From Pachysolen tannophilus NRRL Y-2460 (lineage: Eukaryota): DNA of 56,902 nucleotides. A model generated the notes under the pieces. The model did not search any database and was not told the origin of the DNA. It saw only the letters and a list, made by a program, of their open reading frames with translations. Numbering within the stretch: position 1 is the first letter of the stretch; the number at the start of each line of letters is the position of its first letter. The DNA lies in the NCBI GenBank assembly GCA_001661245.1, contig KV454011.1, forward strand, positions 2,223,271 to 2,280,172. Direction: 5' to 3'. Shown in pieces: positions 10,076 through 49,691 of the stretch. Both the position numbers and the translations under genes were made by a program.

Positions 10076-10329
10076 CTAAATATAGACAACATACACAATA
10101 AGCATTTTGAATCATTAGAAGAATATAGATTATTTTTGTACGAGTAAGATTATAAAGACCTTATCTTTTTAAATAATAATGATAATAAAATTGTACCTTA
10201 TCTTTTTTTTTTTTTTTTTTCACTCTCTCTTTCATTTATCTATAAGAAAAAAAAAAGAAAAAGAAAACAAACACTTGGAGTTATCTATAGTTTGATAACT
10301 TTTAATACCGTTAAACCTAAGATACAAGA

Positions 10330-11350
10330 ATGAGTTCCACTACAACACAAGTTTATTACGATTTATTGGATAGTGCTAAGGATGCAGTTAGGGATAGATT
10401 ACCTGAATCGTTGTTGAAGCCTAAAGTATTGATTATTTGTGGTTCAGGGTTAGGTGGTATATCAAACACTTTAGAAGGCGAATTATTAGAGATACCATAT
10501 GAACAAATTCCAGGTTTTAAAAAATCTACAGTTTCAGGACATTCAGGCAAGTTAGTCTTTGGTGTTATTGGCCATAATAAAGTTCCTGTAATGTGCATGG
10601 TTGGAAGATTACAGTAAGTTAATGACAATTTTTCTTTACAAAGATGAATTAAATTATGATATACTAATTAATTTTTTAAATTTTTTTTAAAAAAATAAAA
10701 ATATATATATATATAGTTTTTACGAAGGTTATGAGTTTTCAGATACAGTTTTCCCAATTAGATTAGCTTCTCTTCTTGGTGTATCTGTTGTTATTGTAAC
10801 TAATGCTGCTGGTGGAACTAATATAAATTTCAAAGCCGGTGATTTGATGATCATCAATGATCATATAAACATGCCAGGTTTATCTGGGTTTCATCCATTA
10901 AGAGGACCAAATTTGGATAAATTTGGTCCTAGATTTCAACCATTATCTGATGCTTATGATTTTGAATTAAGAAAATTATTCTTTAATAGTGCTAAAGATT
11001 TAAAAATAAATAGGAAAATTCATGAAGGTGTTTATTTTTTCGCAAGTGGACCAACTTACGAAACAAGAGCAGAAGTCAGAGCTATAAGAACACTAGGAGG
11101 AGACGCAGTCGGTATGTCCACTGTACCAGAAGTCATTGTAGCAAGACACTGTGGAATGAAAGTATTGGCCCTTAGTTTAATTACAAACGTTGGTGTTAGT
11201 GATCCTCCACTGAGTGCTTTGGACCATGCACCTTTAAACCAAAAACCCTTGGACGCAGGAATTGCAAGCCACGCAGAAGTCTTGCAATACGCAAACATGG
11301 CCGCGTTAGATGTCCAAAAAATCGTCGCTGCCACTGTCAACCTCTTATAA
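10330..11350 (+). CDS. PNP1: Purine nucleoside phosphorylase; exons 10330-10613 and 10717-11350
   Basis: IICGSGLGG, spliced GRLHFYEGY, TNAAGG, GPTYETRAE, GGDAVGMSTVPEVIVARH. Confidence 0.95.
10614..10716 (+). other. Spliceosomal intron of PNP1
   Basis: GTAAGT donor, TACTAAT at 10662, TAG acceptor; joins CA+T to give the His of GRLHFYEG. Confidence 0.92.
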
Positions 11351-12995: not shown

Positions 12996-15505
12996 TTAAA
13001 GAGGAATAACCATGAAATTGAATTCAAAATTAGGACGATTGTCATTATCGTTATTACCTCCGGCTTCTCCTGCTGCTACTCTTTGTTCAAATCTTCTTCT
13101 TGTTCTGTTATGAATGTATATGAATGACCCAACTGCTAGCAGCAAGAATGCAAATATTATCAAATCGTCAAAATCCTCATCTACCATCAGTGCATTATTT
13201 TCATTTGCCTGTTGTCGTCCTTGGTTCTCATTTTCATTATTATTATTATTATTATTGTTATTATTGTTATTGTTATTGTTATTATTGTTGTTATCATTAT
13301 TCACCAGGTTATTCTGATCCAGGATATTTTCATTCAAAAATTCATTATTTGTCTTTTTAATACTTCTGTACAAATTTTTCCAATCACTCCAAGTTCTTCT
13401 CTTTTTAGTTCTATTCTCATCTTCCATACCTTTTGATCCTAATAATCTACTAAACCACATTTTAATTTTTAGTTTAATCAATGCTAATTGAATTGGTAAA
13501 TATGCATCATTTCTTTTCCCTATCATTGTTTTACTTAATAATGCTAGATCATAATATCTTTTTGCCAAATGATAATCTTTAGGAACTCCAAGTCCCATTT
13601 CATACATGTAACCTAAATTGAAACTACCTTGACTTGAATGTCTACTAGAAGCATCTTGATAATATGAAGCAGCTCTATTGTAATCTGGAGGAACAGAATA
13701 AGAATCATTACCAATTTCTTGGGAAAGAGCACCATAATAATATAAATCTCCTAAAAAGACGGTTGAATCAATATTGAATTGTTTTGAAGATCTTGAATAA
13801 TAAGTAAGAGCAGATTGAAATCTAGAAATTGGTAATTTTGGTAAACTTTCTAAATATGGGATTGCTTGATATAAAAGAAACCCTGTAGATGATTGAGCAG
13901 TTTCATAACCTTGTTCTGCAGCCATTGCATAACCAATAAGAGCTAATTCCATGTGATTTTTGGTCAATTTTTTGAAAGCCCATTCCAACGTTGTTATAAT
14001 TGGCTCAATTTTTTCAACAAAAGCTTTATAAATCACAACAGTATCTTCACATGATTTCTTGCCATTTACACCTTTCTCATAAAGAGTTCCAAGATAATAT
14101 GTTGCTTCTTCACAACCACCATAAGCTGCACGTTGCATATATTCAAATCCTTTAGCAGTATCTCCCTTTTTCAATAGATATCTAGCATAATAAAATAAGC
14201 ATCTTTCATTTTTTTGATATGAAACCGATGAATAGTAAAGGTCAGCCATTGCATCATTTGGTTCTTCCAAACCAAGACCATATTCATATATTAATCCCAA
14301 ATCACAAATCGCTTCTATTGAATTAACTGCTTTTTCAGCTTCTTTTAACCATTTAAGAGCCTCATGATAATCTTGTTCTGTTCCTTCACCTCTTAAATAC
14401 ATGTGACCAACCATAGAACAGCATTTAGCTGTGAAAAGTCTATCCACAGGTCTATCACCAGACTCTGGGGTTATTTTACTTAATAGTTCTACCCCATGAG
14501 TGGCACATTCATATGATTTTTCAAATGCTTGTTTATAATCTCTTTTATGGAAATAATCACCAGAATAATAAGCTTTAGATTGATAATAAAGTTGAACTGA
14601 TCTATGATCAGCTGGATCAATATTAATTTCATTAAAGATATTTTTATCATACCCATGATTTTCTGTATTACGTACTAATGAATTAGGTTGTTCACTAGCC
14701 TTTTTACCATAAAGTCCTCCAGAAAAATCCGAAATTCTAACTGAATAACTATCTATATTAGGACCACCTATTGGGCCATTATTAATGAACTCCAATGATT
14801 TTTGAGCTACTATATTATAATAATATAATGCCAATTCACAATTTCTAGGAACAGAAATTCCTTGATAGTAACGATACCCTAAAACCATTGTTGCCCTCAA
14901 ATCACCCATTTCATGAGCAGTTTGATAATGTAATAAAGATTTTGCTTGATTAAACTCAACTTCACCGAAAAGCCCAGTTGCATAAATAAAACCTAGCATA
15001 TAATGAGCAGTAGCATTTTCTCTATTTATATCAGCTAATTTATTATAATATTGTAATGAAAGAGAACCATTTCTTGGAATTGAATAATTTCCAAACATAT
15101 TCATTTCAGCCAACATAAAAGTAGCATCCAGATTATTTAGATCAGAAGCCTGTTGTAATAACTCCAAAGCTCTTAATTGATCTCTCCTCAAAGTTGACAT
15201 ATCGTACATATAATCTCGTCTCACACTATATTCGTTATAATCAATGTTATACATAATCGTCCGACTTTCATCCTCATCTTCATTAATCAATTTAAAATAA
15301 TCCAAAGTTTCAAAATCCTCATCATCATCTGTCTTGAAAGGATACAACAAATCTAGAGCTTGATAATATAACTCCTGAGCAAAAGGTAACGACTCATTCC
15401 TATTAGCTTGTAATACCTGCTGTCCATTCTTGTCTTCATCATATTTCAAATTACCTGATTTCAATTCCGATTCCGATTCAAATTCAAATTCAAATTCTGA
15501 ACCAA
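12996..15505 (-). CDS. HRD3: ERAD Sel1-repeat protein Hrd3, main exon; separated from its promoter and exon 1 in this assembly
   Basis: Multiple Sel1 repeats (AHYMLGFIYATGLFG, ATMVLGYRYYQGISV, FNLGYMYEMGLGVPKDYHLAKRYYD), AAEQGYETAQ and a C-terminal TM helix. No ATG or signal peptide at the ORF start; a 3' splice site (AACTGAT...TTTAATAG) ends at 15506. Confidence 0.9.
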
Positions 15506-16320
15506 CTATTAAAAAGTTCAATTGATCTATAATCAGTTTTAGATGATACAATATCGATTTTTTCTAAATCTGAATTTAAATCATATTTAATTGGGTTAAA
15601 GTTTGGAATTCTATATTCATTTGATTCTGTTGATTTCCTAGAAGTTAACTTTGCCAATTCTAAAGGACCAATATTTGAAATCACATCCACATCCGATGCA
15701 AATCTACTATTTATCATGTTTGTTCTTTTCTTTAAATCATACTTGTTAATTTCTCGAAGTTTTAAATAATAACTAGTCAAATCATTAAAGATTTTATATC
15801 CATCATAGAATTCTCTTACTTGACTCCTAATAATCTTACTCAATGAAGATCGAGGCTTCTCAACAATCCCAGTATTATAAGACCAATGCGATTCATTATC
15901 TTGTTGGTTGGGACATGTAAACCCAAATGATTTCCCAATAAGTTGACCTTCATTATCCTTATGATCTTTAAAAGTAATGTTCAAACTAGAATAACATCTG
16001 GGACAATTGAAACAATTCCCTGAACAATAACTGTACTCCAATTTCATCTCTAGCATACAATGAGGACAGAATTTACATTCCACCTCAGGCTCCAAACATT
16101 TCCTACACCTTATAGAACAACAAGTTGAACAAAACCATAAATTGGAAATCGGATGTAATGTGTTTTCATCTAAAATTGTACTCGGTATCAATGATTTCTC
16201 ATCATCTTCAGTTACAACATCAACAACATCAACCACATCATTAACCGGCTCAGAGCAAGGGCAAAATATCAATATCTCCGGCCTCTCGCCATCGGATAAC
16301 TCATCATCGAGTAAATCCAT
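15490..16320 (-). CDS. Dynactin p62 (DCTN4)-like protein, N-terminal half; genuine part ends at about 15537
   Basis: Cys-rich p62 pattern LHPISNLWFCSTCCSIRCRKCLEPEVECKFCPHCM...CSGNCFNCPRCYSSL; the last ~15 codons run into the HRD3 intron remnant and exon 2. Confidence 0.82.
   Translation of the reverse strand: MDLLDDELSDGERPEILIFCPCSEPVNDVVDVVDVVTEDDEKSLIPSTILDENTLHPISNLWFCSTCCSIRCRKCLEPEVECKFCPHCMLEMKLEYSYCSGNCFNCPRCYSSLNITFKDHKDNEGQLIGKSFGFTCPNQQDNESHWSYNTGIVEKPRSSLSKIIRSQVREFYDGYKIFNDLTSYYLKLREINKYDLKKRTNMINSRFASDVDVISNIGPLELAKLTSRKSTESNEYRIPNFNPIKYDLNSDLEKIDIVSSKTDYRSIELFNSWFRI
15537..15554 (-). repeat. Left inverted repeat of the 1.1-kb inverted segment
   Basis: Minus strand reads ATATTGTATCATCTAAAA; 17/18 identical to 16637-16654 on the plus strand. 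Confidence 0.85.
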
Positions 16321-16558
16321 CTCATATTCTTATTATTATCTATAAAAATAACTAAAAATTGGAAAGACGTGTTTTTCAACTACTTTTTATTATATATATA
16401 AATTGATCATCATCATATCATATCATATCATATAATATAATATAAAGTTAATAATTAAAACTAGAACATAGGAAGAAATCATATAAACTCGGGAGGAAGA
16501 GGTTTATCATTTTTTTTTTTAAATTCTAATCTTATCTATAGATGTCTATTAGTTGCTA

Positions 16559-16604
16559 ATGGTTTGCTTATGGACTTTGGTATTGGAATTGCTGGTAGTA
16601 CTGC
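16559..16604 (+). CDS. HRD3: Displaced exon 1 (signal peptide) of HRD3
   Basis: ATG at 16559 encodes hydrophobic MVCLWTLVLELAVVA (CTG=Ala), followed by a phase-1 GTAAGA donor at 16605 that matches the phase of the acceptor at 15506. Confidence 0.72.
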
Positions 16605-16629
16605 GTAAGAAAATTCAAACAGAATACCA

Positions 16630-17388
16630 ATGAATAATATTGAATCATCTAAAAGCCAACAGAAAGAAAATTTGTTTCCATTACATCAGAAACTTCGATC
16701 AAAAATATCATTGCGATGCAAGAAATGTAGAGATCAAATAATGAAACCAGATTCTGATCCTATATCTACAAAATTTTACAAGAGTAATAATGCTACTACT
16801 GTGCTCCCATTTATACAAATTTCTCCATTGTTAAACAACTTATACAACAACAAATTCATTCCAAATTCCAAAGTTCAATTATTGATGAGTTTTATAAATT
16901 ATTCACCTCAAGAAATGGAAATTTCAATTTCAAGTCTTGATAAATTGTCTCTAACTAAAAATTTCACAGAAACTACTTCGTTATCTGATAACTTTATCAA
17001 GATAAACCTTCCATGCTCAAGTTTTAAACTCAAGCAACAACCTAAAAATCCATTAAAATTGGAAAACTTGATAACAACAATTCCAACTGTGGAATTAAAC
17101 AATTATTCAAGGCTATCAAGAACAGAGCTAATTAATAGAAACAAAGTTATTAAGCGACTCAGTACACCGTCAACCGGCAATTCTCAAACAGTACCTTTAG
17201 ATTCAGGAATCAACTGGTGTACAATCCCATTAGAATTATCAATTGGTGATCTCAGTCAGAATCTCAATCAATACAAAACTCAGTTGAAGATACCATTTTT
17301 CATTAGTATAAAGCAAAAACAAACAGAGAATATAGAGCAGGCATTTGGGATTTGGATAATCGCAAAGTTGGGATATATAGAAGCATAG
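16630..17388 (+). CDS. Dynactin p62 (DCTN4)-like protein, C-terminal half; genuine part starts at about 16655
   Basis: LFPLHQKLRSKISLRCKKCRDQIMKPD matches the p62 motif LxPxxxxLRxKxSxRCxxCxHxxxKP; followed by beta-rich segments and GINWCTIPL. Confidence 0.8.
   Translation: MNNIESSKSQQKENLFPLHQKLRSKISLRCKKCRDQIMKPDSDPISTKFYKSNNATTVLPFIQISPLLNNLYNNKFIPNSKVQLLMSFINYSPQEMEISISSLDKLSLTKNFTETTSLSDNFIKINLPCSSFKLKQQPKNPLKLENLITTIPTVELNNYSRLSRTELINRNKVIKRLSTPSTGNSQTVPLDSGINWCTIPLELSIGDLSQNLNQYKTQLKIPFFISIKQKQTENIEQAFGIWIIAKLGYIEA
16637..16654 (+). repeat. Right inverted repeat of the 1.1-kb inverted segment
   Basis: ATATTGAATCATCTAAAA; perfect 11-bp core ATCATCTAAAA shared with 15547-15537 on the minus strand. 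Confidence 0.85.
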
Positions 17389-17560
17389 ATAGCATAGAAG
17401 TTAATAGAGTCTTTTGTCAATCTCATCAACTTTTGTATTATATTGTATATATTTGTATGTATTCATGTACGTAACGCGCCTTAAAATTATTTATTCAAAA
17501 ATAAAATAAACCAAAACATCAAATTAATAATTAATACAAAAAAAGTTAGCTGAGACAGAG

Positions 17561-18043
17561 ATGGCGTTGGCAAAGAGATCATCCGGAGCGATTGATGAGG
17601 GACTGGAAAGGGAAAGGGAACGAGAACAGGAACAGGAACAGGAACCTCAGTTTTCAACAACTGCTTTAGCAAGAATTTTCCATACGGTTGCATTTGAAAA
17701 TGGAGATACAAGAATAACGAACAGAACTTTGGAGCTTTCGGCAGAATACCTTCGAATGTTTACCAGAGAAGCAATATTAAGGGCAAATGAGGTCAGGATT
17801 CAGGAGTCAATCAAGAATAATAATAAGTTTAAAGTGGAATTAGCTAATAATGTTACGAATAAAAAAGAAAAAAGACCTACTGCTGCTGATCATGAAGATG
17901 ATATGAATCAACATAGTGTAGACGAGGATGATGATGATGATGATACAGATAGAAATGGAGGATCGGGACAGGAGCTCATTGGGGATGTTTTGGATACAAG
18001 GCATTTACAAGATGTGTCAGGGTTGTTACTTTTAGATTTTTGA
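17561..18043 (+). CDS. MHF2: CENP-X/Mhf2 histone-fold protein with an acidic insertion
   Basis: TRITNRTLELSAEYLRMFTREAILRA and C-terminal LQDVSGLLLLDF. Confidence 0.85.
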   Translation: MALAKRSSGAIDEGLEREREREQEQEQEPQFSTTALARIFHTVAFENGDTRITNRTLELSAEYLRMFTREAILRANEVRIQESIKNNNKFKVELANNVTNKKEKRPTAADHEDDMNQHSVDEDDDDDDTDRNGGSGQELIGDVLDTRHLQDVSGLLLLDF

Positions 18044-26377: not shown

Positions 26378-28699
26378 TTAGATGAGGTCCAGTTGTTGCT
26401 GTTGTTCTCTCAGAAGCTTATTTTTGGCCTTTTCAGTCTTTCGATCGTATTTTGTATCTTCTGGGTTGAATCCTCCTTCTTGTGATTCCCAATAAGCCCA
26501 GTCTGGGGTTTCTGAGACATAATCTAAATCGTTGAACTTGTCACCGGATTCCAACAATTGGAAGAACTTGTTGTAGTTGATATGAGTGTGCCATTTATTG
26601 TTTATCTTAAACTTTGTCTGTGCTATTAAGATACAGCATGAATGTGCATGTTCGCAAGCAATATCATAACTGAATCCTTTTTTTTGTAATTCTTGATTTA
26701 AATTACGAACAAATTGTTGGCATTCTTGATAAAATGGAATATTTTGCATTGTTAAAGGGTTTCCATTACCGCTTGAAGAGCCACAGAATGTTGCTCCTTT
26801 AATTTCAATCAAAGAAGGTTGACCTCTTGCAACCAAATCTGCGTATTCATTAACATCAGTCATATTAAATCCTTTTACTAAAGTTAATCTGAAAACAGTT
26901 CTTTGATGCAGTTGAGTAGTTTTCAAAATTTCTAGGCATTTTAATAATCTTTCCCAATAATCTTTGAATAATGGTCTATCAACTTTTTTCAATGAATCTC
27001 TAGTAGAAGCATCAATAGAAACATATAATTGTGTAACTTTCCCTAATGCATTCAATTGTTCTGGATGTTGGGCATTACAGACTAAAAATGAAGAAATATG
27101 TTTCTCATGTAACATTTCAACAAATTCATTAATATATGGATAAAAAATAGGTTCTCCAACTAAAGATAATGCACAATGTTTCACGGTAAATGCTTCGTTA
27201 AATCTTTCAGCAACCACTCCTGGTACACCTCTCATCTGTTTGATCTTCTTATAATGACCCTCTAATGCTCCTTTCAATATCACCTCAGGACCATCTACTT
27301 GCCATCTCCATGATGTACCAACAGGGTTTGTTCCATGTCTCCAACAAAAGACACATTTATTGGAACATGATAATGAAGGTGTAGTCTCCATACAAAGATG
27401 AGATTTAATACCATAAAATGCAAATTTATAACAAGAACCTCTACCTCTTAATGCAGATTTTGTCCATCTACAAATCTTAACACCCGAATGTGATCCAACA
27501 ACTGTATAACCTTGTTTTGTTAAAGATTTATAAGTTGGTGAATCCTTAGCAACCATCTCCTTAATTTCTCTTCTTTCCATTATATCAACCTCTGATGAAT
27601 CAGAGCTCGACTCTCTTATCATCTTACCCATATCCTCCACATCTACTAAAGTACCTTCAGATTCTCCCGAGCCGCTATCATTGTCGTTGTCATTGTCATT
27701 GTCATTGTCACTGCCAATCTCTTCAATGTCATCACCATCATCGTTATTCCTGTTATTGTTCAAAGTTATTGGTGTATCATCTTTTAAAGACTCTGCAAAT
27801 AAATTTATCCATTCTTCAATTCTATTATCTCCTCCAGTTTTCATACAAATGGTACCAAGAGGGAAAATTCTTCTTCCACCTAATTTCCCTAACCATTTAT
27901 CTGCTAATTTTGCCTGATAACAAAATCTTTCAGGCCATGACTCAGAATCTCCAACACCTAATACTGAGAATCCTGCAAGTTTTTTCAATGGATATTTATC
28001 CACTCTAAAATCGTTAAAAGTTTCTTGTAAAGTCTCCAAGAAATAATCAATTGGAGAATCTGTATCGTACGAAGGTAATACCAATATATATACCAAATTC
28101 GGTAAATCAGCTGGAACATTAACAAAATAATCATCAAGATCATTAACATCATCATCTAAATTTAAAAGTTTAGGCTTGTTTGTCAAGTTAATGTCATTTG
28201 ACAATTTTTGGTATAATTTTTCAGCCGCTCTTTGAGATGATCCTGTTAATGTGGTATAAAAGATTATTATATTTGAATTAAGCCAACTGTTACTCCCTAC
28301 AGATTTCAAAGTTGGCGATAATGATTTGGTCGGTTTCTTTCCCTTGGCATTAATGATTTTTGGAACTCTCTTGGCTTTTATTCTTTCTGATAACAAGTTT
28401 GATTTTGGTTTGAAGCTCAAAGTAAAATCTACTTCATTCGGCACATTAGCAACAGTAGTTGTAGCAGCAGTAGCAGCAGTAGCAACTTTAGCAACTTTAG
28501 CAACTTTAGCAGCAGCGACAGAAGCTATAATCTTACCACTAGAAACATTATCATGCCTTTCACTACTGGCACCATCTCGTTTTTCAAGATTTTTCAGCAA
28601 AAAATAAACTGTCACCACTAACGATACTAATGTCCATCTTCCTCCAGAGACAAGGTATATGAAAAGTGCACCAACTAGCACGAAAGAACTCACACCCAT
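26378..28699 (-). CDS. TYW1: tRNA wybutosine synthesis radical-SAM/flavodoxin enzyme
   Basis: N-terminal TM, flavodoxin TLTGSS, LTKQGYTVVGSHSGVKICRWTK, radical-SAM CSNKCVFC, HCALSLVGEP. First ATG at 28699. Confidence 0.95.
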   Translation of the reverse strand: MGVSSFVLVGALFIYLVSGGRWTLVSLVVTVYFLLKNLEKRDGASSERHDNVSSGKIIASVAAAKVAKVAKVATAATAATTTVANVPNEVDFTLSFKPKSNLLSERIKAKRVPKIINAKGKKPTKSLSPTLKSVGSNSWLNSNIIIFYTTLTGSSQRAAEKLYQKLSNDINLTNKPKLLNLDDDVNDLDDYFVNVPADLPNLVYILVLPSYDTDSPIDYFLETLQETFNDFRVDKYPLKKLAGFSVLGVGDSESWPERFCYQAKLADKWLGKLGGRRIFPLGTICMKTGGDNRIEEWINLFAESLKDDTPITLNNNRNNDDGDDIEEIGSDNDNDNDNDNDSGSGESEGTLVDVEDMGKMIRESSSDSSEVDIMERREIKEMVAKDSPTYKSLTKQGYTVVGSHSGVKICRWTKSALRGRGSCYKFAFYGIKSHLCMETTPSLSCSNKCVFCWRHGTNPVGTSWRWQVDGPEVILKGALEGHYKKIKQMRGVPGVVAERFNEAFTVKHCALSLVGEPIFYPYINEFVEMLHEKHISSFLVCNAQHPEQLNALGKVTQLYVSIDASTRDSLKKVDRPLFKDYWERLLKCLEILKTTQLHQRTVFRLTLVKGFNMTDVNEYADLVARGQPSLIEIKGATFCGSSSGNGNPLTMQNIPFYQECQQFVRNLNQELQKKGFSYDIACEHAHSCCILIAQTKFKINNKWHTHINYNKFFQLLESGDKFNDLDYVSETPDWAYWESQEGGFNPEDTKYDRKTEKAKNKLLREQQQQLDLI

Positions 28700-47030: not shown

Positions 47031-47392
47031 AAAAAAAAAAAAAAAAAAAAAAAAATTTATATCTACTAAAATGATTAAAAAAAAAAAAAAAAATAGACTT
47101 ATATATATGTATAATAGATATCAATAGGTTCTTGTAATATTTTGATTGAAAGAAAAAAAAAAAAAGTTTAATTACAAATCAAACTCCATTTCAATGTCAC
47201 CATCATCGGCAATTGCTTGTTCATTACTGCTATCACGACCGGCATGAGCAGTACTACTACTATCATCAATTTGACCAAGGCCGCCGTTGTCACCTGTGGA
47301 GACACCTCCTGGATGTTGCATAACCTGTTCATCATCATCATCTTCAAAATCGACTTCAAAGAAATCTTCATCATCACCCACGATTTTTTCAT
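47031..47392. repeat. Direct duplicate of 47585-47953 (3' end of MRS6 and its terminator) flanking the gap; probably an unmerged contig overlap
   Basis: Sequences match apart from homopolymer lengths; the copy ends abruptly at the N run. Confidence 0.85.
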
Positions 47393-47584
47393 NNNNNNNN
47401 NNNNNNNNNNNNNNNNNNNNNNNNNNNNNNNNNNNNNNNNNNNNNNNNNNNNNNNNNNNNNNNNNNNNNNNNNNNNNNNNNNNNNNNNNNNNNNNNNNNN
47501 NNNNNNNNNNNNNNNNNNNNNNNNNNNNNNNNNNNNNNNNNNNNNNNNNNNNNNNNNNNNNNNNNNNNNNNNNNNNNNNNNNNN
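47393..47584. other. Scaffold gap (192 N)
   Basis: Run of N. Confidence 0.99.
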
Positions 47585-47622
<38 letters not shown>

Positions 47623-47732
47623 ATATCTACTAAAATGATTAAAAAAAAAAAAAAAATAGACTTATATATATGTATAATAGATATCAATAGGTTCTTGTAA
47701 TATTTTGATTGAAAGAAAAAAAAAAAGTTTAA

Positions 47733-49691
47733 TTACAAATCAAACTCCATTTCAATGTCACCATCATCGGCAATTGCTTGTTCATTACTGCTATCACGAC
47801 CGGCATGAGCAGTACTACTACTATCATCAATTTGACCAAGGCCGCCGTTGTCACCTGTGGAGACACCTCCTGGATGTTGCATAACCTGTTCATCATCATC
47901 ATCTTCAAAATCGACTTCAAAGAAATCTTCATCATCACCCACGATTTTTTCATATAATAATTTTGCTTCAGTTACTATACCATCATATGATATTTCTGAA
48001 GATGGCATATTTGAATAAACAACACCATGATCTGGAGCTGCTAATGTGGAATTGATATCTTCTTCTTTTTTATTATGATCAAACAATTTAGGTCTAACTA
48101 TTCCAAATGGAGGGATTGCAGAATGTTGTGTAAAGAGTAATTTAAATAAACATTGTATATTTTGTTTTGGAATAAAATCTTTAAAAGATTTACCCAATTT
48201 AACAGAATTTATAACTGGAAGACCATCTGATCTAATGAAAACATCTTGTTCATCCAATGATACATCAAATCCATCTTCTTCACTTTCTCTTAATAAACTT
48301 TCTTCTAATTTATTTAATGCTGTTTCCAAATCTTTTCTTGCTCTATTTCCAGTTTCAATAGTTGATAAATACCATACACTTTGTCCAACTGGACATATTC
48401 CTGATCCACCTGATTGTATAAGTATTTGAACTGGATATTTATTTGCTGTTGGTAAAGAATTAGTTGGGAAAACAATTATACATCCACTTTCATTTTCTGT
48501 CATCCATTCTTTACAAGATTTTTTAACAATTGCAATAAGTCTTGTTATTTGATGTGGTTGATCTGGAACAAATTTTGCATTTTCTGGTGCTTGAGATGGG
48601 GAACAAATGATTTTTTCAGTAACATGAACTTTTGAACCATCTGTGAAAATAGCTATTTTAGAATTTGGGTCATAAGATACTAAACCAGTATCTAATTTAT
48701 AAGTTGCACCAGCTACAGCTGCTGATCTACAAAAACCTTGAGAAATTTCACCTGGTCCGCCATATTTTGAAAACATTACTGGGAAAGAACCATAAACTTC
48801 AAATGAAGACAAATATCTTTTAACTCTTGATAATCCTGCTGGAGTTAAAATATCTGGTGTTGAAGTTAAACCAATTGAATAAACTAATTCATTTACTTGT
48901 GGTTTCAGTAAATTAAATTTTTCTTGTATAAATTGAATAAAAGGTTTTTTTGAATAATTTATCCATTGATCTTTTTGATTTTCATAATCAAATACAAATT
49001 TCATAAATTTCATTAAATATCTTTTTGTTGTTAAACTTAAAGTTTGATCAGTGAAAATATCTTCTTTTGTACTTGCTAATTTTTCAAAAGAATCATTTTC
49101 ATAAGTATGATAAGTACTTAAAGGTTGAAATTCCAAATATTTATAAACTCTTGATTTAATTAATAAAGATAATAAATCTGATTTAGCAAATAAAATTCTT
49201 GGAGTTAAATCAATTCCATAATCTTTTGAATTTAAATCTTGTGGTCTTGGAATATATAATAATGCATCACTAAAACCTTTAAACCCATTATTATGTTGAT
49301 TAACATTATCAACCCACAGTTTAATTTGATCGATGGTTAATGTAGAACAAGTATCACCATAATAAGGATGAGAATCTATATGTAAAACAGATGAACCTTG
49401 CCACAGTAATGCTGCAGCTAATACACTTTCAACTAAACCTGTCCCACATATAACAACATCACATTTTTCTGGAGTTCCTTCCATCAGCGGTTCTTCTAAT
49501 CCAGCTAATGAAGGAATCACACCGCCTTGAACTTGATTTTGATTTTGATTTTGTGCTTGTGCTTGTGCTTGAGCTTGAACTTGAGCTCTAGCTTGAGCTT
49601 GAGCTTGTGCTTGAACAACAGATAACCTTCTTTCAACCACAGATGGTCGGCGCTCTGCAAGATACCGATGCTCAGTAACAGAACTCATCAT
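47733..49691 (-). CDS. MRS6: Rab escort protein (Rab geranylgeranyltransferase component A)
   Basis: ERRPS, DVVICGTGLVESVLAAAL-WQGSSVLHID, DYGIDLTP, YGGPGEISQGFCRSAAVAGATYKL, PSSEISYDG. Confidence 0.95.
   Translation of the reverse strand: MMSSVTEHRYLAERRPSVVERRLSVVQAQAQAQARAQVQAQAQAQAQNQNQNQVQGGVIPSLAGLEEPLMEGTPEKCDVVICGTGLVESVLAAALLWQGSSVLHIDSHPYYGDTCSTLTIDQIKLWVDNVNQHNNGFKGFSDALLYIPRPQDLNSKDYGIDLTPRILFAKSDLLSLLIKSRVYKYLEFQPLSTYHTYENDSFEKLASTKEDIFTDQTLSLTTKRYLMKFMKFVFDYENQKDQWINYSKKPFIQFIQEKFNLLKPQVNELVYSIGLTSTPDILTPAGLSRVKRYLSSFEVYGSFPVMFSKYGGPGEISQGFCRSAAVAGATYKLDTGLVSYDPNSKIAIFTDGSKVHVTEKIICSPSQAPENAKFVPDQPHQITRLIAIVKKSCKEWMTENESGCIIVFPTNSLPTANKYPVQILIQSGGSGICPVGQSVWYLSTIETGNRARKDLETALNKLEESLLRESEEDGFDVSLDEQDVFIRSDGLPVINSVKLGKSFKDFIPKQNIQCLFKLLFTQHSAIPPFGIVRPKLFDHNKKEEDINSTLAAPDHGVVYSNMPSSEISYDGIVTEAKLLYEKIVGDDEDFFEVDFEDDDDEQVMQHPGGVSTGDNGGLGQIDDSSSTAHAGRDSSNEQAIADDGDIEMEFDL

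Follow-up and report, generated by a model that had tools for sequence, protein, structure and literature searches.

The 1096-bp block at positions 15512 to 16607 of the window (the whole stretch of 56,902 nt analysed here) has very probably been placed in reverse in the draft assembly, and we put the probability that it is an error of this kind, and no genuine genomic feature, at about 0.9. The DNA of the organism most likely carries the block the other way round, with the genes for dynactin p62 (529 aa) and HRD3 (854 aa, no intron) intact and diverging from an AT-rich spacer of about 240 bp. The earlier note on this region had been headed by a reversible switch and had ranked a private inversion and an artefact as at least as likely. 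The contigs built from sequencing reads support the artefact; the switch of the headline finds no support in them.

As assembled, the p62 gene is divided between the two strands, and so is HRD3. The N-terminal half of p62 is found in a minus-strand ORF of 276 aa (15490-16320), which matches the Pfam family Dynactin_p62 (PF05502) at positions 1-75 (E 1.2e-12, 47.8 bits), and the C-terminal half in a plus-strand ORF of 252 aa (16630-17388), which matches the same family at positions 280-355 (E 2.7e-8, 33.5 bits). Both scores lie above the gathering cut-off of PF05502, which is 25.3 bits. The body of HRD3 includes a minus-strand ORF of Sel1 repeats at 12996-15254 (Pfam PF08238, E 1.7e-35, 120.6 bits). 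The features, in window coordinates, are as follows.

12996..15511, minus strand: HRD3 body, with Sel1 repeats (PF08238) and a C-terminal membrane segment; its homologs are named HRD3.
15512..16607, no strand assigned: the reversed block, whose length is 1096 nt in the window but 1099 nt in the contigs; the alignment shows 3 gap letters and 0 other letters.
15512..16320, minus strand: p62 5' part, probably stranded by the misorientation, with its start codon at 16320-16318; it matches PF05502 and, in a profile made from 18 homologs, spans positions 7-238.
15537..15554, minus strand: left 18-mer, p62 coding sequence (DIVSSK), off the breakpoint.
16321..16558, no strand assigned: divergent p62/HRD3 intergenic spacer, 21% G+C, containing both homopolymer discrepancies.
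16559..16607, plus strand: HRD3 5' end, probably stranded in the same way, with the ATG and a hydrophobic leader (16 codons plus 1 nt).
16608..17388, plus strand: p62 3' part, stop included, whose frame carries on from 15513-15512 over the joint; it covers profile positions 245-477.
16637..16654, plus strand: right 18-mer, p62 coding sequence (NIESSK).

Public sequencing runs that match 14300-17900 number five, four of them from one sample and study (2010-2011) and the fifth, dated 2023, from another sample in another study; no RNA run is listed for the interval. The sequence of each run consists of contigs built from its reads, and contigs of four runs, three from the first sample and one from the second sample and study, were aligned to this interval. 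In every one of the four, a single contig (8280, 11025, 8280, and 5757 nt) spans all 3601 bases, and each of these contigs is made up of three abutting pieces, of which 14300-15511 and 16608-17900 share a strand and 15512-16607 lies on the opposite one. The joints are 15511/15512 and 16607/16608, and no letter at either of them fits both sides in the contigs of the four runs. The assembled arrangement is absent among these contigs, a kind of sequence that drops rare variants. Over the 3601 bases, the window and the contigs differ in base sequence only by two homopolymer lengths, both within the block, and the 2505 flanking bases show no difference at all. The homopolymer at 16354-16358 is A5 in the window and A6 in the contigs, with the extra A behind 16353, and the one at 16510-16520 is T11 in the window and T13 in the contigs, with TT added behind 16509; all four runs agree on both. 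Read-derived sequence from two samples and two studies contradicts the assembly at sharp block edges and is otherwise, these homopolymers apart, identical to it.

When 15512-16607, and no more, is reversed, p62 becomes a continuous ORF of 529 aa and HRD3 a continuous ORF of 854 aa, in which the ATG at 16559 begins a hydrophobic N-terminal leader and the frame runs on into 15511-12996. Because HRD3 forms a single frame of 854 aa in the read-based orientation, no intron is needed. These restored frames bear out the earlier claim that both genes are broken as assembled and that the opposite orientation is the functional one. An exhaustive search with the N-terminal part of p62 returned 228 relatives (E <= 0.001), the best with 43-45% identity, and most of the top relatives are 420-530 aa long; none among the 228 is a protein of the same species able to show the junction. 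When the same part was searched among longer proteins, none of 1464 candidates reached E <= 0.001, which is weak evidence only. A p62 profile was made from 18 of the best 30 relatives, picked by hand and 422-527 aa in length. The restored 529-aa protein aligns to it in one stretch over positions 7-477 with 390.8 bits, as compared with 381.7 bits for the product of the flip between the two 18-mers described below, and of the 18 homologs, 12 have residues aligned with the 24 that are unique to the read-based flip, as counted by eye from the alignment. With both halves above the PF05502 cut-off and collinear in one restored protein, the product would be a member of the p62 family.

For HRD3, ten homologs were picked from 57 matches for comparison. 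The restored leader aligns with hydrophobic N-terminal leaders in eight of the ten; P0002 has none and P0009 has a short start only. For the relatives P0009, P0010, and P0023, the sources give the name ERAD-associated E3 ubiquitin-protein ligase component HRD3, and Ogataea species, at about 42% identity, are among the nearer relatives. The leader, the Sel1 repeats, and the relatives named HRD3 together argue for a predicted HRD3 / SEL1L protein, that is, an adaptor of the ERAD ligase. To judge from the frames and alignments, the opposite orientation restores the features that are broken in the assembly, with both predicted products collinear with their homologs.

It had been claimed that a pair of 18-bp inverted repeats, at 15537-15554 and 16637-16654, marks the breakpoints. 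In the window, the two 18-mers are inverted repeats indeed, complementary at 17 of 18 positions, but the breakpoints are elsewhere: the true block boundaries are 25 and 47 nt away from the 18-mers, and the joints there share no nucleotide. In the read-based orientation, both 18-mers are on the plus (p62 coding) strand, which in the flipped sequence carries them at 16565 and 16637, and they form a direct, in-frame repeat with a distance of 72 nt (24 codons). The inverted repeat is a by-product, in that the misorientation has made a direct repeat of p62 into an inverted one. A search for the 18-mer word gave two matches in the window at no more than one mismatch and none in 100 shuffles for that word. 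Inverted pairs of 17/18 quality within 2 kb occur at four places in the window, whereas 20 first-order Markov simulations gave 0-2 (mean 0.65); direct repeats of comparable quality occur at 22 places. Such an inverted pair is uncommon, not unique. The direct repeat sits in a variable linker of p62. Between the sequence separating the two copies and the sequence after the second 18-mer, no further similarity was found, and a longer tandem duplication looks unlikely.

Flipping 15537-16654, the segment bounded by the 18-mers, had been said to restore p62. It does give an open frame, of 505 aa, but it is not the flip found in the contigs, which reverse 15512-16607 instead. Between 15512 and 16643, the two flips disagree at 789 positions and, since the contigs have no other letters, the flip at the 18-mers is excluded. 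That candidate, contradicted by the contigs, also requires an intron in HRD3, for which the true orientation has no need. The spliced HRD3 that had been proposed, with an intron made up of 16605-16654 joined to 15536-15506, is spurious, an uninterrupted frame of 854 aa being present. The share of sampled words of 14300-17900 found in the runs is 0.96 in each of the five, compared with 0.971 expected for the read-based form; this measure cannot tell the two flips apart once indels are counted, and it speaks for consistency only.

How might the block have come to be reversed? In an inversion-type misassembly, a small contig or a gap fill stands in the wrong orientation within a draft scaffold. 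The present case is like this in that its edges can be seen only where the assembly disagrees with the read contigs, in that the other orientation restores two ORFs, in that the consensus inside the block is poorer, and in that the scaffold holds a further gap with duplicated flanks. It differs in its ends. Where a contig has been misplaced, its ends are usually marked by Ns or by bases that are missing or repeated. The ends of this block abut exactly, with no Ns and no bases lost or duplicated, which counts against a misplaced contig as the cause. A search of the literature on small misassemblies by inversion in draft genomes of yeasts, limited to those parts of the sources that were accessible, found nothing specific. 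As a best guess, the scaffold had the reverse complement of a small contig, or of a gap fill with a lower-quality consensus, pasted into it. Such a paste would account for the blunt, base-exact edges without a repeat as well as for homopolymer miscalls limited to the block. The occurrence of homopolymer undercalls only inside the block suggests that its sequence came from a different, poorer source than the flanks.

The same blunt edges can be read in another way, as a one-off inversion fixed in the assembled clone or DNA preparation, in which two double-strand breaks were rejoined without homology and both HRD3 and p62 were knocked out; the sequenced runs would then stem from cultures without the inversion. 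The block is balanced and base-exact and has no Ns, as clean end-joining would give, and both genes could plausibly be dispensable for a yeast in culture. However, the intact form is carried by two samples from two studies which match the window at every other base of the 3601, homopolymers apart, and the confinement of the miscalls to the block points to the source of the sequence and not to biology. In addition, the scaffold has another flaw, at 47 kb, and errors in draft assemblies are a priori far commoner than blunt 1.1-kb inversions that hit two genes at once in a type culture. We consider a private inversion improbable, and a block placed in reverse by the assembly remains the reading that we prefer.

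The second flaw, at 47 kb, had been noticed before, and it is real. It is a gap of 191 Ns (47394-47584) with duplicated flanks: 47078-47392 equals 47641-47953 at 100% identity and a spacing of 561-563, within the interval 47031-47953. The arrangement looks like an unmerged overlap of contigs, as far as its sequence goes. Given a gap of 191 Ns with flanks duplicated at 100%, the scaffold is an unfinished draft. Long poly-A runs adjoin the flanks of the gap, and their lengths differ between the two copies. Through the duplication, the 3' end of a GDI-family gene (minus strand, 47733-49691) is present twice, and a spurious ORF arises at 47244-47633.

A third reading is that of a reversible inversion which turns HRD3 and p62 on and off jointly, the assembled orientation being a minority state in the population. 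The divergent promoter that the two genes share does lie inside the block, and two orientations are on record, if only one in the assembly and the other in the read contigs. If the switch were true, with the minority form hidden from the contigs, a block without flanking repeats would be flipping and would be switching off a component of ERAD and a subunit of dynactin together. Several observations are against it. At the true boundaries there is no inverted repeat, a complementary flank being absent there even at 1 nt (1-4 nt were checked), and the 18-bp repeat is direct in the intact form. One of the two states would destroy both coding sequences, and not merely uncouple a promoter from them. 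In four of the four runs, the contig passes unbranched through both joints, whereas a substantial mixture of orientations would be expected, from the way de Bruijn contigs are constructed, to branch the assembly graph. As had been stated before, no recombinase is visible in the window: no Pfam family of recombinases, integrases, or transposases was found in 28 of the 30 ORFs of at least 120 aa in the 56.9 kb, the two left out of the scan being the end-truncated 3-719 and the antisense 27595-28008. Likewise, the search, confined to the 56.9-kb window, gave no sign of a recombinase or long homology tract able to drive the inversion.

Switches of the kind first pictured for the block are familiar from bacteria. 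The bacterial promoter switches fimS and hin consist of a promoter segment of about 0.3-1 kb with short inverted repeats at its exact boundaries, and they require a site-specific recombinase. The likeness is that of a short, promoter-bearing segment with short inverted repeats, as initially imagined here; the difference is that the present block has no boundary repeats and that no recombinase was found in the window.

Among yeasts, the parallels are the flip/flop regions. In the mating-type switching of Ogataea polymorpha, a region of 19 kb is flanked by two identical inverted repeats of 2 kb, which recombine with each other, and silencing is brought about by proximity to the centromere (PMC5720833). 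As here, a chromosomal segment of a budding yeast is recorded in two orientations, and there the orientation sets which genes are expressed. In contrast, the present block measures 1.1 kb, has no repeat at its boundaries, loses coding sequence in one orientation, and appears in the reads in a single orientation. The flip/flop polymorphism of Saccharomyces cerevisiae chromosome XIV comprises 24 kb between almost identical 4-kb inverted repeats, with genes intact in both orientations (PMC9731477). It, too, is a region on record in two orientations, but the block considered here lacks flanking repeats, and its assembled orientation breaks two genes. The remark in the earlier note that the repeats of yeast flip/flop regions are far longer than 18 bp is correct for these two, with 2 kb in the first case (PMC5720833) and 4 kb in the second (PMC9731477), and their length tells against a switch at the present locus. 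To judge from these two examples, regulated or recurrent inversions in budding yeasts have long repeats at exact boundaries and keep their genes intact, and neither holds here. Accordingly, we give the reversible switch hardly any credence, less even than a private inversion, and return to the misoriented block as the explanation.

What follows for users of this genome is mainly a matter of hygiene. The deposited scaffold makes two ordinary genes look broken and invites wrong gene models, such as a split p62, a leaderless HRD3, or an HRD3 with an invented intron. More generally, the signal that a flip restores two ORFs can stem from a misoriented block, and a short inverted repeat nearby can pass for a recombination site. 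Such cases are quickly settled once the exact breakpoints have been compared with sequence built from reads.

Some minor observations concern HRD3 and its surroundings. Near the C-terminal end of HRD3 there is a run of about 20 Asn codons (13114-13360), with spurious poly-Leu and poly-Tyr ORFs on the opposite strand. CTG codons look like Leu and not Ser: the HRD3 CTG at 15110-15112 (LNN-L-DATF) stands opposite V, I, or some other hydrophobic residue in the majority of the ten homologs, and two further CTGs lie within the hydrophobic leader of HRD3 (16559-16607). The few sites looked at hint that this yeast may use the standard code rather than CTG=Ser.

Elsewhere in the window, an ORF of the PNP_UDP_1 (purine/uridine phosphorylase) family at 10847-11350 matches its profile only from position 92 on. 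An upstream frame on the same strand (10321-10617, MSSTT...), for which no Pfam match was found at E <= 0.05, may be the first exon of this gene, with a short intron in between.
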